Assembly: GCA_951406725.2 (NCBI GenBank) | Contig: OX597828.1 | Span: 7,936,001 to 8,000,000, forward strand | Length of the DNA: 64,000 bases | From: Octopus vulgaris | Lineage: Eukaryota | Direction: 5' to 3' | Part shown: piece after piece, positions 244 through 33,561 of the stretch | Position numbering within the stretch: the stretch's first letter is position 1 | Layout of the letters: every line of letters begins with the position of its first letter | Made by a program: the position numbers and the translations under genes | The notes under the pieces: model-generated | The model's input: the letters and a program-made list of their open reading frames with translations, nothing else | Told to the model about the DNA's origin: nothing | Databases searched by the model: none

Positions 244-535
244 AGAATATTACTAGCAGAACCATCAGCTTCACCCAGCTGTTTTATAGTGGAGTGGAGA
301 ATAGGACGGTTATTTGGCTATGTCCTTAGAGCAAAGGATAACTATGCTATATTCAAAGATCAAAGTACGTATCCCATCGAGTTCAAATTTGCCTTCCATC
401 ACACTAGGGTATATAAAATACCGTTCTAGACAGGCACAAGGTTGCTGCAATGGAGAAATCTTCTCGTGTGTAAAGTCCAGGGATGTGTGCTTTTATGTAG
501 GTATGTATAACGTATATATGTATTACGTATATATG

Positions 536-606
<71 letters not shown>

Positions 607-612
<6 letters not shown>

Positions 613-1086
613 TTGTATACTGTCAACTTAACGTGACAGTCCCGTAAGACTTCGTAGATATATATATTTTTTTTCAGTGAAATTCATTCACTGATCACCA
701 AAATCAGAAATATTAAATTTCTAAATATCTCATAGAGATATGTGCGGTGGTGGAGCGATAGAAAAAAAAATGTTTACGAAGTCTAGACAAATATCTTCAG
801 CTAGCAGGCCTTGCTACTCTAGACCGATGATGGGCAAGACCCTGAAACATGCATGTATCTAGATGCAGGCCTAGCTGTTGTGGGTGTTTGTCTCCCCTTC
901 GTAAATATATAAGGGCACAGGAAATGTGTCAAGGCCGACAGAAAGCGTCGATGCTTCCTAGGGATAAATAGCTGTGGTGTAATTCCCTTACGGGACTGTC
1001 TCGTTAAGTTGACAGTATACAACCACTCTATCGCTCCACCACCGCACATATCTCTATGAGATATTTAGAAATTTTATATTTCTGAT
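607..1086. mobile_element. Penelope pLTR-like or retrozyme-like relic with permuted inverted repeats
   Basis: 607-648 is the reverse complement of 987-1028 and 703-760 of 1029-1086 (one mismatch each); contains a hammerhead fold; flanked by (TA)n/(GA)n. Confidence 0.6.
818..863 (+). ncRNA. Type I hammerhead ribozyme-like motif (U4>C core variant)
   Basis: tctaga-CCGATGA-t-ggg-caaga-ccc-t-GAAA-c-atgcat-g-TA-tctaga: stem I, stem II, palindromic stem III and GUA cleavage triplet in canonical order. Confidence 0.7.
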
Positions 1087-1115
1087 ATATATATATGTAT
1101 GTATATATGTATGTG

Positions 1116-1166
<51 letters not shown>

Positions 1167-1376
1167 ATATATTTATTTATATACATATATATATACAAGT
1201 CTGTGTGTGTTTGTATGTGTGTGCGTTTATGCACGCGCTGTGTGTATGCGTAAACGAATGTACGATTGTCTATGTAAAATTTCTCTGAGCACATGGAATT
1301 ACATTTTGCAATGTATGCTTTCCCGATTCCAAAATGCCACCATGTATTTTGATGAAATCTCCTTGATATGTCTATG

Positions 1377-1609
1377 TATTTCTTTACTACCCACAAGGGG
1401 CTAAACACAGAGGGGACAAACAAGGACAGACAAAGGGATTAAGTCGACTACATCGACCCCAGTGCGTAACTGGTACTTAATTTATCGACCCAGAAAGGAT
1501 GAAAGGCAAAGTCGACCTCGGCGGAATTTGAACTCGGAACGTAACGACAGGCGAAATACGGGTACGAATTTCGCCCGGCGTGCTAACGTTTCTACCAGCT
1601 CGACGCCTT
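1377..1609 (-). mobile_element. SINE family A, near full length
   Basis: Reverse complement runs from ggcgtcgagctggtagaaacgttagcacgccgggcgaaat through the core to the gtaaagaaata tail. Confidence 0.9.
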
Positions 1610-2207
1610 GATATGTCTATGTAGCAGATTACTTCTCCATGCAGAAGCACATATTTGTTTCCTAGGCATCCACATTGCGAGCCTAACACACTGAAGTTCG
1701 TTCAAGAAACCCTGGTACGTTTTATGCTAAGAGAACGTTTGATGTAGCTATAGTTCTTTTATTTATATTAATAAACAAATTTTTAAAATATGAATCATGT
1801 AAAAAAGAAAACAAATATGGCGTAAAATTGTATGACATAAAACATATTCTGAATTGCATTTGCTTTCAATTCGGAGTGCCGTTTTTCACTACTCGCTACT
1901 CAAGCTTTTCAGCAAACTATTTCCCCTCTGATAGAAGCAATAATTTGTCTACATATTATGAAGCCATTCGCATATAGTTGAAATATTTCACTTGAAAGAG
2001 TATTAGACTGAAAATCTGGCGGTTCTTTGTAGAATCATAAATCTCAGAAAGAACATAGCGAATTACCGAAATTTTTATAGTGTGATTTAGTTATGATGGA
2101 CTTAATTATGAAAAGGGGATGTTTGATCACATATTTACATATCAACGCATAGTCATCGTTATTATATTGTCTTTTAAATTGGTCTACACAAACATAAAAC
2201 TAAAATA

Positions 2208-2386
2208 GAAAACAATTACAGCGTGGAAGGTGTTTATAAGCCATTTAAGAAACACACAAAATCCGTTAGATTAACTTCAACATTTAAATTTGATTTGTCA
2301 AAATAATTTCGTCGCTTTGAGACCGTGACCTGTTCACTTAAAATATTCCATGCTGCATAAACACCTTCCATGCTGCAATTGTTTTC
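2208..2386. repeat. 30-bp inverted repeat (28/30) with 119-bp spacer
   Basis: gaaaacaattacagcgtggaaggtgtttat (2208-2237) vs ataaacaccttccatgctgcaattgttttc (2357-2386). Confidence 0.8.
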
Positions 2387-3620
2387 GTTCCAGCACACGA
2401 TCTCAGATCAAGTCACTTGTTCTGCAAGTACATCTCCGTAATAAAATAGAAAAAATTATGATAATATGCATTTCACTATATTATAGATGAAATGAAATAC
2501 AATATTACAGGTGAAATATTTAAGAGTTCAGATTCACTCATCTTATTTAACTTTAGAAAATATTTCCGGAAATATATTTGTGTTTTTATTTTTGATGATA
2601 TAAAACGTAATAAATTACTGGTGCTAAAGAGTGTTTGGTTTAGATATTATAATTTGCTGTCGAATATATGTATAAATTTCATCCTACAATTAAAATGTAG
2701 TATAATACACGCAGTACTGACTGAACCTTATAAATTTATTCTATAATACATTATAGAATCTATTAAAGATATCTTGTGGTGACATTTGTTCACCTGTGTT
2801 TTAGTATTTGGGTGTCAAGGATGTGAATTTCAAATTTATTTGTAGAAAAATACTGCAACTCACAATGCCTTGCAAGCATTAGTCAGACTTTCACAAATCC
2901 ACCCAATTTCTTAATTATGCGACCGTGAGGCCAAAAAATAAAAAGTAAAATAAAGACATTTGAAAAATATGCACAAATTTCGTCAGACGAACGTAAAGGG
3001 AAATATAATAATTATAGTAGAATTAACAACACGAAAATGTTCGTAATACAAGACTTTCTGACAAAACATATTTCGAGAAGAGTTTACGACTCTAACTCTA
3101 AATTGCAAGATTTATTTATGTATGTATGTATGTATTTATTTATTTAGTCATTCATTCAATCAGCCATTTATAGAAGATGTCCATTATAATCACCGAATTG
3201 TATCCATAATGAACATTAATGTCTTTCAATTAAAGTTAGGGCGGTGAATTAGCAATTCCACGTTTTCTCAGCATTTTATAACCCGAATTCAAACCCTGCA
3301 AATGTCAACTTCGCCTTCCAATCAGTCGATAAAACAATGTAACATTGTAGTTGGTGAAATTGTTATATAGAAGACGAAATGCTTTGCATTATTTGTCGTA
3401 TATTTTATGCTCTAAGTGTTCAAGCAAGTGGGTCTTTGAAAAAAAGATCAATGGACATAAATGAAGAGCCTCTTTTCTATTCTTCCGTGAAATATCTATG
3501 GCAAGCATGTAGCACTTACATGTGAAATCACAAGGGCCATTGATGTACTTTTACATTTAAAGGAAAACTTACGTTGCGTGGAAATCAGCAATTGGAGATG
3601 TAAACATACATACATACATA

Positions 3621-3681
<61 letters not shown>

Positions 3682-29299: not shown

Positions 29300-30062
29300 G
29301 GGAGTTTGTACTGCCTGTTAATTCACAAAAAGGACCTCAGAGAAAGAGTACTTTACGCAATATGTGTCCAAGTAAAACGGATTTTTCCAATGGATCTAAA
29401 GTTTCCAGGTGTCTTTTCGGGTTGGGTGGTATTGAGCTCAATGCTCCGATGACAACTAGGATAACCTTTATGTTTGACTCTCGCAGCTGCCACATTTTGA
29501 TTCTCAGGTCTCCGTATTTATCAATCATTTCTCTTTCTTTCATGATGATATTTTCATCTCCTGGCACTGCCACGTCAATTATTAGGCACTCTTGTTTGTC
29601 CCTCCTAAAGGTTTCTATATCCTGCCGTCGGTGCTCTAATAGCTTGTCTATCTGGATGTCAAAAGTCGCAAACAATCTTTGCTTTCCCCTTTTCGTCCAT
29701 TATCTTTTCCGGTGTATGTTGGTACCAAACACCCATCACTTCCTATCCATACTTCCGGCATAGTAACCAGTGCATATTTTTTGGGCTACTTTGTCGTTTT
29801 TGCACTTGAACTCTTTCTGCGCAAGACTTTCACACGCACTAACATGTGAGTTACACTATCGACCCTCTTTCCGCACATTCTGCAGAGATTCGTTGCACTG
29901 GTGTGGTATATATCCCTTTTCACTGAGTTGGTATTCAATGCCTGATCCTCGGCAGCAATGATCAGGCTTTCAGTCATCATTTTTAGGTCACCCTTGCCGA
30001 GCCACCTCCATGATGCTTCTTGCTCTTTTAAATTCTTAGTTTCACGGTAAAACTGACTACGT
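29300..30062 (-). mobile_element. R4/Dong-clade RLE LINE 3' fragment
   Basis: ORF-track peptides TESLIIAAEDQALNTN..LCRMCGKRVDSVTH (zinc knuckle) and EHRRQDI..CLIIDVAVPGD..KYGDL..VVIGAL..VLLGHILRKVL; (TTA)n on both sides. Confidence 0.9.
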
Positions 30063-30063
30063 A

Positions 30064-30219
<156 letters not shown>

Positions 30220-32388: not shown

Positions 32389-33561
32389 CATAGGTTGGAC
32401 AAAATAATAGAAACACCTTAAAATTTCAAACAAATATATTTTAATATGGAGTAGAACCGCCTGTGGCAGTAATTACAGCTTAAATTCTATGAGATATGGA
32501 CTCGTACAAAGTTTGAATTATTTCCAAAGGATTTTTGTTCATTCTTCAGCTAAAACAGCCTCCAGTTCTTGTAGTAATGATGATGGAGGATATCGACTTC
32601 TTACTTGTTTTTCTAAAATGCACTATAAATTTTCAATAATATTGAGATCTGGGGACTATGTTGGCTAGATAAGATTTTCAACTTCAATAGAATTTGTGCC
32701 AGTTAGCTGTGTGAATTGGCGCATTATCATCCTGAAAGATGGAGTTTCCCCCCGGAAACAGCTCCACAACCATAGGATGAATTTGATCAGATAAAATGCT
32801 TAAATAGTCTTCACTATTAATTCTGCTATGAAGGGAAACTATTGGGCCAGCGGATTTTCAAGATATATCCCCATAGATCATCACAGATCTTCTTCCATGT
32901 TTAGCAGTTGGAAGAAGGCAGTCTGGATCAAATGCTTCTTTTGGCTGTCTCTACACGAATACTCGATCTATGGTTGGAAATAAAGAGAAGGATGACTCGT
33001 CCGAGAAAATAACATTCTTCCACTTCGCTAGGGACCAATTCCGTAAGCTTTTACTCCACTCTAAACACTTTGCAACATTTGTTTTTGAAAGTAGTGGTTT
33101 TCTGATTGCAGCCCTCCCGTGAAGTCCGGCTTTGTACAGCTCCCAGGGAACAGTTTTTATGGAAACTGGGATCTCGAGGTAGTCCTTAAGCTCTGCAGTA
33201 GTTTTGGGAGCTGTACTTTTGTGATCCTTTCTAACAATTCGCGTAAGAGTCCGACGGTCCTATCTGAAAGTTTTGGTTTTCTTCCGGAGTTTTGTTTCAA
33301 TGAGGAGGTTTTTCTCTATTTCTCAAATGCTGTCATTACTTTCCAGCACCAACAATCTGACCTCTTTGAAAGTCCGATAGATATGAATTTTAATGAATTT
33401 TAATTCCCTATTTCTGATGATATCTGAAAAGAAACAGCAATTTTAGCAAAGCATATTAAGCAACACTAATAATAAATAAAAAAACATAAAAATAAACAAG
33501 CTTTTGACGGGTTTATAGATATTTCATAATTATAATGCTATGATGCTGGTGTTTCCATTAT
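32389..33561 (-). mobile_element. Decayed Tc1-family (DD34E-type) transposon
   Basis: Minus translation LSDFQRGQIVGA, SGRKPKLS, VIFSDESSF, IFQDDNAPIHTA, SPDLNIIENL with in-frame stops; TIR ggttggacaaaataatagaaacacc after TA at left, partial ggtgtttccattat at right. Confidence 0.9.

Follow-up and report, generated by a model that had tools for sequence, protein, structure and literature searches.

How does a non-coding insert of 480 bases come to consist of two head-to-head, reshuffled pieces of one repeat of about 355 bases, itself present in many copies? The question is raised by positions 607-1086 of a 64,000-nt stretch of Octopus vulgaris contig OX597828.1 (below, the window), which is animal-like and repeat-rich, with GC content of 25-43% per 2 kb. 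The answer we favour, with moderate confidence, is a single head-to-head insertion of a 353-358-nt repeat that lacks an open reading frame (ORF) and carries a hammerhead motif; it would likely be a non-autonomous, retrozyme-type unit mobilised by a Penelope enzyme, with an uncut multimer as the most likely template.

The locus and its two microsatellite flanks divide into the following features (coordinates, strand, description, source).

537-606, no strand: left target, (TA)n and then (GA)n microsatellite (sequence)
606-648, minus: outer end of the left arm, block A' (equivalent to 987-1029; blastn and sequence comparison)
647-658, minus: left arm, opening 12 nt of the unit (one mismatch to the equivalent 773-784; sequence)
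659-666, minus: left arm, head-to-tail junction 1, where (TA)4 separates the tail from the unit start (sequence)
667-702, minus: block Y', an optional 3' extension of 36 nt made up of 28 nt, including an 8-bp hairpin, and A8 (sequence, contig depth)
703-762, minus: inner end of the left arm, block B' (equivalent to 1027-1086; sequence)
761-772, plus: start of the right arm, G, A9 and TG, that is, tail end and short spacer, head-to-tail junction 2 (sequence)
773-905, plus: predicted rod of 133 nt with the ribozyme at its tip (minimum free energy, MFE, -56.4 kcal/mol)
798-877, plus: predicted type I hammerhead motif (descriptor, fold, family letters)
906-986, plus: rest of block X', non-coding (sequence)
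987-1029, plus: right-arm block A' (sequence, contig depth)
1027-1086, plus: right-arm block B' (sequence)
1085-1195, no strand: right target, (AT)n-rich microsatellite (sequence)

An earlier note on these letters had described blocks A and B as inverted and permuted, and the comparison bears this out. Block B at 703-762 and the inverted 1027-1086 agree at 59 of 60 letters (blastn E 1e-24), and block A at 599-648 matches 987-1036 in inverted orientation at 47 of 50 (blastn E 2e-16), with one mismatch within 606-648 versus 987-1029. Read in reverse complement, the 9-mer 648-656 is identical to 775-783, and the match grows to a 10-mer (647-656 and 775-784); by a rough, post hoc estimate, the chance of such a 9-mer at that position is about 0.001. 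Its reading as a direct copy of 895-903 was rejected: 7 letters match there, and 10 do in the inverted comparison with 775-784.

In RNA sense, the right arm (plus strand, 761-1086, 326 nt) comprises the tail end, X' with the ribozyme, A' and B', while the left arm (minus strand, from 762 to 606) comprises B', the Y' tail, (TA)4, the first 12 nt of X' and, after a deletion of 204 nt, A'. Without this deletion (785-988 equivalent, with 2-nt microhomology), which takes away the ribozyme, the left arm does not fit the unit; the model that includes it leaves 3 mismatches in 157. The left arm, given the deletion, is not a plain permuted monomer. The left arm begins at the equivalent of 1027 and finishes at that of 1029, that is, at the same point between A' and B' within 3 nt. 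Letters 761-762 are common to both arms and form a 2-nt inversion microhomology. At the outer ends, the right arm stops at 1086 without the tail and passes into (AT)n with 2-nt microhomology, and the 3' end of the left-arm A' in RNA sense enters (TC)n, again with microhomology; microhomology is present at every junction of the locus. The arms face outward, with the RNA 3' ends of both running into microsatellites. Comparison with other copies shows about eight letters of the right arm that nearly all of them lack (857, 881, 915, 942, 964, 973, 1001 and probably 1075). The left arm looks nearer to the family majority, the differences being too few to call the arms unequal in age.

The repeating unit measures 353 or 358 nt, depending on the choice of junction, in agreement with the estimate of about 360 nt made earlier from summed blocks. 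Its order in RNA sense is X' (with the ribozyme), A', B', tail and A8(TA)n, followed by the next X'. The tail-to-head junction occurs twice in the window, once per arm, with unequal spacers, A8+(TA)4 and A9+TG. The GC content of the unit is 41%, and the longest ORF starting with ATG encodes 40 aa on the strand that carries the ribozyme, as compared with 76 aa on the opposite one. Letters A and C make up 78% of 1017-1048 versus 49% across the unit. Folded as a circular monomer, the unit reaches an MFE of -117.5 kcal/mol with 66% of letters paired (z -5.4, none of 60 shuffles being as stable); the opposite strand folds equally well (z -5.9). The self-pairing stems mostly from 773-905 (z -6.1 versus -2.5 for 906-1086).

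No second copy of the element was found within the 64-kb window. Neither were tRNA genes (0 in the same 64 kb), so the window holds no intact tRNA-type head. A 26-letter family motif had no matches in collections of metagenome, prokaryote-genome and viral contigs, as expected of an animal repeat. Among the neighbours, SINE-like repeat copies at 2-194 and 1377-1600, opposite in orientation and 86-91% complementary, flank the element; this repeat has 23 further matches in the window, so the flanking pair is probably ordinary. In appearance it resembles a SINE of octopods. A Tc1/mariner transposase fragment lies at 32954-33259 on the minus strand (Pfam PF01498, E 5.8e-12), its relatives showing 63-82% identity (6 matches among 9 candidates), the only named one being from a crustacean (71%). 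A broken LINE-like 3' region occupies 29340-30064 on the minus strand, with a weak zf-RVT match at 29789-30064 (E 0.0033), next to which lies a segment that we take to resemble the endonuclease end of Dong/R4-type elements; a protein search with this fragment gave no matches among 207 candidates.

Copies outside the window were sought in public contigs. The listing comprised 24 runs, of which 20 (4 organisms, 10 studies) contain part of the stretch and none contains half of its words. Four of the 24 (X1, X2, X6 and X12) were compared with the element at 80% likeness, the matching contigs numbering 3,679 of 40.6 million, 3,382 of 35.8 million, 1,661 of 14.2 million and, for X12, 423 of 6.6 million. 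None of the listed holders is recorded as RNA; that X12 is RNA is a guess, DNA being possible as well, so its 423 contigs are not counted as expression evidence. The family statements below draw on 40 of 49 variants, 15 of 33 joints and 24 of 614 loose ends.

The element is a many-copy family. The earlier note would have abandoned its repeating unit for a single-copy sequence, or one lacking the junctions of Y to B and B to A elsewhere; the contigs, at 423-3,679 per run, show neither. In particular, Y continues B in other copies, with a Y depth of 13,000-49,000 in X1 and X2, and four contigs (two of X1, two of X2; three of the joints considered) join 658/659 to 770, 773 or 774 on opposite strands at a depth of 21-61. 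Read in the direction of the family order, these joints suggest the tail-to-head junction, from Y to the start of X, at other loci, at single-locus depth as against that of Y; none was found in X6 and X12 among the joints listed. The contigs, which break in repeats and are all too short to display two ribozymes, contain neither an array with two whole hammerhead units nor, among the joints listed, a high-depth one expected of long arrays. Loose ends behind 643/647 show A continuing normally into X in all four runs, so the deletion joint of the left arm (647-658) looks private to this locus.

The 3' side of the family is graded. Between A' and B', summed depth drops by a factor of 1.75-4.1, and entry into Y' from the end of B' brings a drop by a factor of 6.1-9.6; both hold in all four runs, with a ratio of Y to B of 0.05-0.10. 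Among the matches listed, 11 contigs of X6 have loose ends behind 1031 that start with (AT)n, 12 contigs of X6 have AT-rich ones before 608, and 9 contigs of X1 have unrelated ones before 701. The AC-rich 3' edge of A' is likely a major family 3' end, and together the data suggest three such ends (the A' edge, the B' end and the tail end), two of them at the outer ends of the locus, a soft count given that summed depth is not copy number. The outer ends of both arms thus appear to coincide with the 3' ends of family copies. The tail (674-694, minus) and B' (about 1065-1085, plus) each finish just past an 8-bp hairpin, and two of the three apparent 3' ends therefore come after a stem-loop.

These ends bear on whether the layout arose by reverse transcription at all. 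A rearrangement at the DNA level (fold-back repair, or an older tandem that was inverted and partly deleted) or a mis-assembly between microsatellites could leave microhomology at every junction, as observed, and no contig spanning the whole locus is among those listed, the inversion junction resting on the assembly. Both outer ends, however, lie on apparent family 3' ends facing microsatellites; a simple inversion of a tandem would need further deletions to give the observed order; and, with 2 disagreements over the roughly 102 letters common to them, the arms are not a single read counted twice. We consider an origin of this kind very improbable.

The ribozyme had been placed on the minus-strand reading. 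A type I hammerhead descriptor matched the 64-kb window once, at 824 on the plus strand, with no match on the minus strand and none in 20 shuffled windows, so the A-X-Y-B order proposed earlier has to be reverse-complemented to give that of the RNA. The core letters stand at 824-830 and GAAA at 844-847. Stem I (798-823 with 858-877) has an internal loop and an unpaired U at position 1.7 (864); stem II (832-834 with 840-842) has a 5-nt loop and stands above a U-U pair; stem III (847-856) is palindromic, and the cut is predicted after 857. A contact of loops I and II by the unpaired U1.7 and a terminal A in loop II has been described (PMC11875169), and both letters are present here in the sequence. 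The copy in the window has C at core position 4 (825) and a GUA triplet. In the family, T makes up 80%, 80% and 76% of the depth at 825 for X1, X2 and X6, and none of a depth of 133 for X12; at 857, C makes up 99-100% in all four runs. The family majority core is therefore canonical (CUGAUGA...GAAA...GUC), the C at 825 of the window being a minority letter and its A at 857 nearly private.

The motif lies at the tip of the rod, whose z score is -6.1 versus 100 mononucleotide shuffles and whose base is a 9-bp exact reverse complement of 773-781 and 897-905. Minimum-energy folds do not form the catalytic core. Rfam gave no match at the gathering threshold in the 64-kb window, and a search over 590-1100 with E up to 10 gave five matches, none of them a hammerhead. 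In a one-sided, per-position table of variants, those at 886 and 843 would strengthen the pairing of the rod and that at 820 would break one pair, the effect of 811, 873 and 878 varying with register. Across the cleavage site, family depth declines steadily from 886 to 811.

Penelope-like insertions often pair a main copy with an inverted 5'-truncated one, bear a tail of 30-40 bp at one of their ends and favour microsatellites (PMC8557442). The inverted copy, the optional tail and insertion into microsatellites are described for Penelope/Poseidon, Neptune and Naiad elements (PMC8557442, PMC11167929), and all have counterparts here. The 5'-truncated inverted copy (606-762, minus) stands beside the main copy (761-1086, plus). 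Block Y' (667-702, 36 nt), missing from the right arm, is likely a Penelope-type tail. Both flanks are microsatellites, compared with a base rate of about 10% simple repeats in the window, and loose ends of other copies pass into (TA)n before 773 and (AT)n behind 1031. Moreover, endonuclease-bearing Penelope-like elements share hammerheads with a palindromic stem III and ends beside an AC-rich stretch (PMC8557442, PMC11167929), while Naiads, as presented in the same sources, are without canonical hammerheads, unlike the element studied here. The element also differs from Penelope-like ones (PMC8557442, PMC11167929) in that its tail leads into the next unit and not into an ORF. The search for adjacent Penelope ORFs that had been proposed gave no Pfam match to the reverse transcriptase (RT) core or GIY-YIG domain in any of the 297 stop-to-stop segments of at least 55 aa in the window (low-complexity segments excluded). 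With no RT/GIY-YIG ORF, the element is not an autonomous Penelope; and since the tail leads straight into the next unit in both arms, the template was ORF-less and crossed the unit boundary.

The 5' side of the family is relevant to another explanation, in which most copies are 5'-truncated pseudo-LTRs of an autonomous Penelope with (TA)n upstream of 773, the junctions come from adjacent insertions and no short unit exists. The depth profile, which climbs from 773 towards A' (from 3,016 to over 500,000 in X1), resembles that of 5'-truncated retrocopies, and hammerheads with a short palindromic stem III are typical of pseudo-LTRs according to PMC6765202, where dimer cleavage is treated. Part of this slope, however, is due to a subfamily, found in all four runs, that diverges upstream of 907-909. 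That subfamily still resembles 880-908. In X1, X2 and X6, the loose ends before 773 end in (TA)n with no shared coding sequence (among the 24 of 614 loose ends listed, a small share that leaves room for pseudo-LTRs), and the share of matching contigs continuing into unlike sequence is 0.01 in each of the four runs; 773 is the 5' boundary of the family. The tail directly precedes the unit start in both arms, so there was no ORF at that place in the template. Finally, stem II and the unpaired U1.7 are features of full-length-type hammerheads (PMC11875169), and the motif is unlike the 'minimal' variants reported in Penelope-like elements (PLEs) by PMC7229834. We therefore regard truncated pseudo-LTRs as an unlikely source of this family.

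The unit itself agrees with the retrozyme hallmarks of 150-450-bp units, GC content under 50% and self-paired RNA (PMC7229834), being 353-358 nt long, 41% GC, non-coding, multicopy and highly self-paired. With metazoan non-LTR retrozymes (Cervera and de la Pena 2020, PMC7229834) it shares a non-coding unit of a size close to the 350-390 nt of Mytilus, the low GC content, one type I hammerhead per unit, the self-paired RNA and the head-to-tail junction; the U-U mismatch at the base of stem II also occurs in axolotl HHR_Amex2 (PMC7229834). The copies here are dispersed and mostly partial; expression and circles, demonstrated for the metazoan retrozymes of PMC7229834, would here be predictions. 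On these grounds, the unit likely works like a metazoan non-LTR retrozyme. Its two suggested identities, a retrozyme-like RNA and a Penelope pseudo-LTR, thus largely merge into a single one, an ORF-less, retrozyme-type unit dependent on Penelope, while the long tandem array that went with them was not seen.

Under the favoured reading, a Penelope-like RT with a GIY-YIG endonuclease would have introduced nicks into the two strands of the microsatellite and started synthesis twice, each time at an internal site. Such behaviour has a precedent in one purified Penelope-type enzyme, which cuts and extends both target strands, and for which the tail corresponds to the interval between two internal RT starts in an AC-rich stem-loop (PMC11167929). 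The arrangement of the locus, with its AC-rich 1017-1048, is that expected of two primings of this sort directed at each other. For the right arm, synthesis primed at the end of B' would have run back over 326 nt, crossing the still uncut cleavage site and reaching the tail before it. For the left arm, priming would have taken place at the end of A', with 204 nt lost by a microhomology jump or a later deletion, and the cDNA would have gone on to copy the tail and the B' that precede. Both cDNAs would then have been joined at the 2-nt microhomology 761-762. As in other animal retrozymes, the hammerhead may cut multimers into monomers able to circularise.

The form of the template can be narrowed by the right arm, in which the cleavage site is crossed intact. 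A linear monomer released by ribozyme cleavage could not have yielded this arm and was rejected; either an uncut multimer or a circle can. The two spacers differ, so a multimer with two junctions suits the locus better than a single circle, and unprocessed RNA was the dominant in vitro substrate of the purified Penelope-type enzyme (PMC11167929); these two observations together make us favour the multimer. Against it, the spacer difference could stem from later microsatellite slippage, and the exact one-unit length of the left arm suits a circle better.

In the latter case, the same family and enzyme would have used a covalently closed monomer RNA as the template, each cDNA halting within one turn, a possibility we entertain tentatively. 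The left arm corresponds to one circumference within 3 nt, a coincidence of about 2% under uniform stops (post hoc), and the right arm, at 326 nt, is shorter than one unit with the cleavage site crossed intact. Genomic head-to-tail joints are scarce among the joints listed (15 of 33), in mussels retrozymes of 350-390 nt are for the most part circular (PMC7229834), and the unit folds well as a circle. The opposite strand folds as well, however, so the fold shows no preference for a circle of one polarity; a single circle does not readily give two different junction spacers; unprocessed RNA was dominant for the only Penelope-type enzyme tested (PMC11167929); and on a multimer, a second enzyme bound at the A'|B' start could also halt the cDNA there. 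That the locus is the footprint of a Penelope enzyme copying closed retrozyme RNA, one arm once round and the other through the re-ligated site, is accordingly a reading we hold as rather doubtful, and the uncut multimer is retained as the preferred template.

Elements of this kind have already been described (PMC7229834; bioRxiv 10.64898/2026.07.22.740005). The second source (Li, Clavereau and Pollet 2026) argues that retrozymes derive from Penelope pseudo-LTRs (pLTRs) and treats them as non-autonomous PLE derivatives, sharing with the present element the proposed origin, mobilisation and dispersed monomers. Its evidence, as presented in the preprint, is co-occurrence and pLTR phylogeny in 31 vertebrates, 3 insects and 1 anthozoan. 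Compared with it, the locus adds an insertion footprint, while showing no linked PLE and no two consecutive whole hammerhead units. The inverted head-to-head insertion, the optional tail and the microsatellite target are not discussed for retrozymes in the main text of PMC7229834. No description of a hammerhead or retrozyme family from a cephalopod was found in the literature searched, Repbase, Dfam and supplements being places where the family may be listed, and it is probably the first such family described from a cephalopod. In the giant squid, 235 hammerhead-1 loci have been counted without context (PMC6962438), and the Octopus vulgaris repeat paper reports 31 recently active Penelope-like families, with 'hammerhead' and 'ribozyme' absent from its text and from its one supplement (PMC13282606).

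The class being known already, the gain is a test case and not a new system. The enzyme and the RNA form that move animal retrozymes are a matter of proposal in the discussion of PMC7229834, and the 2026 preprint calls its own life-cycle evidence limited (10.64898/2026.07.22.740005). An ORF-less hammerhead unit with a Penelope-type tail, an inverted copy and a microsatellite target provides footprint support for mobilisation by Penelope that is independent of phylogeny. In a family of this size, the lengths of inverted arms and their end points could tell circular from multimeric templates by the genome alone, and, if the footprint of a circle is true, thousands of insertions would be available to test the proposed circular-RNA step of retrozyme transposition.
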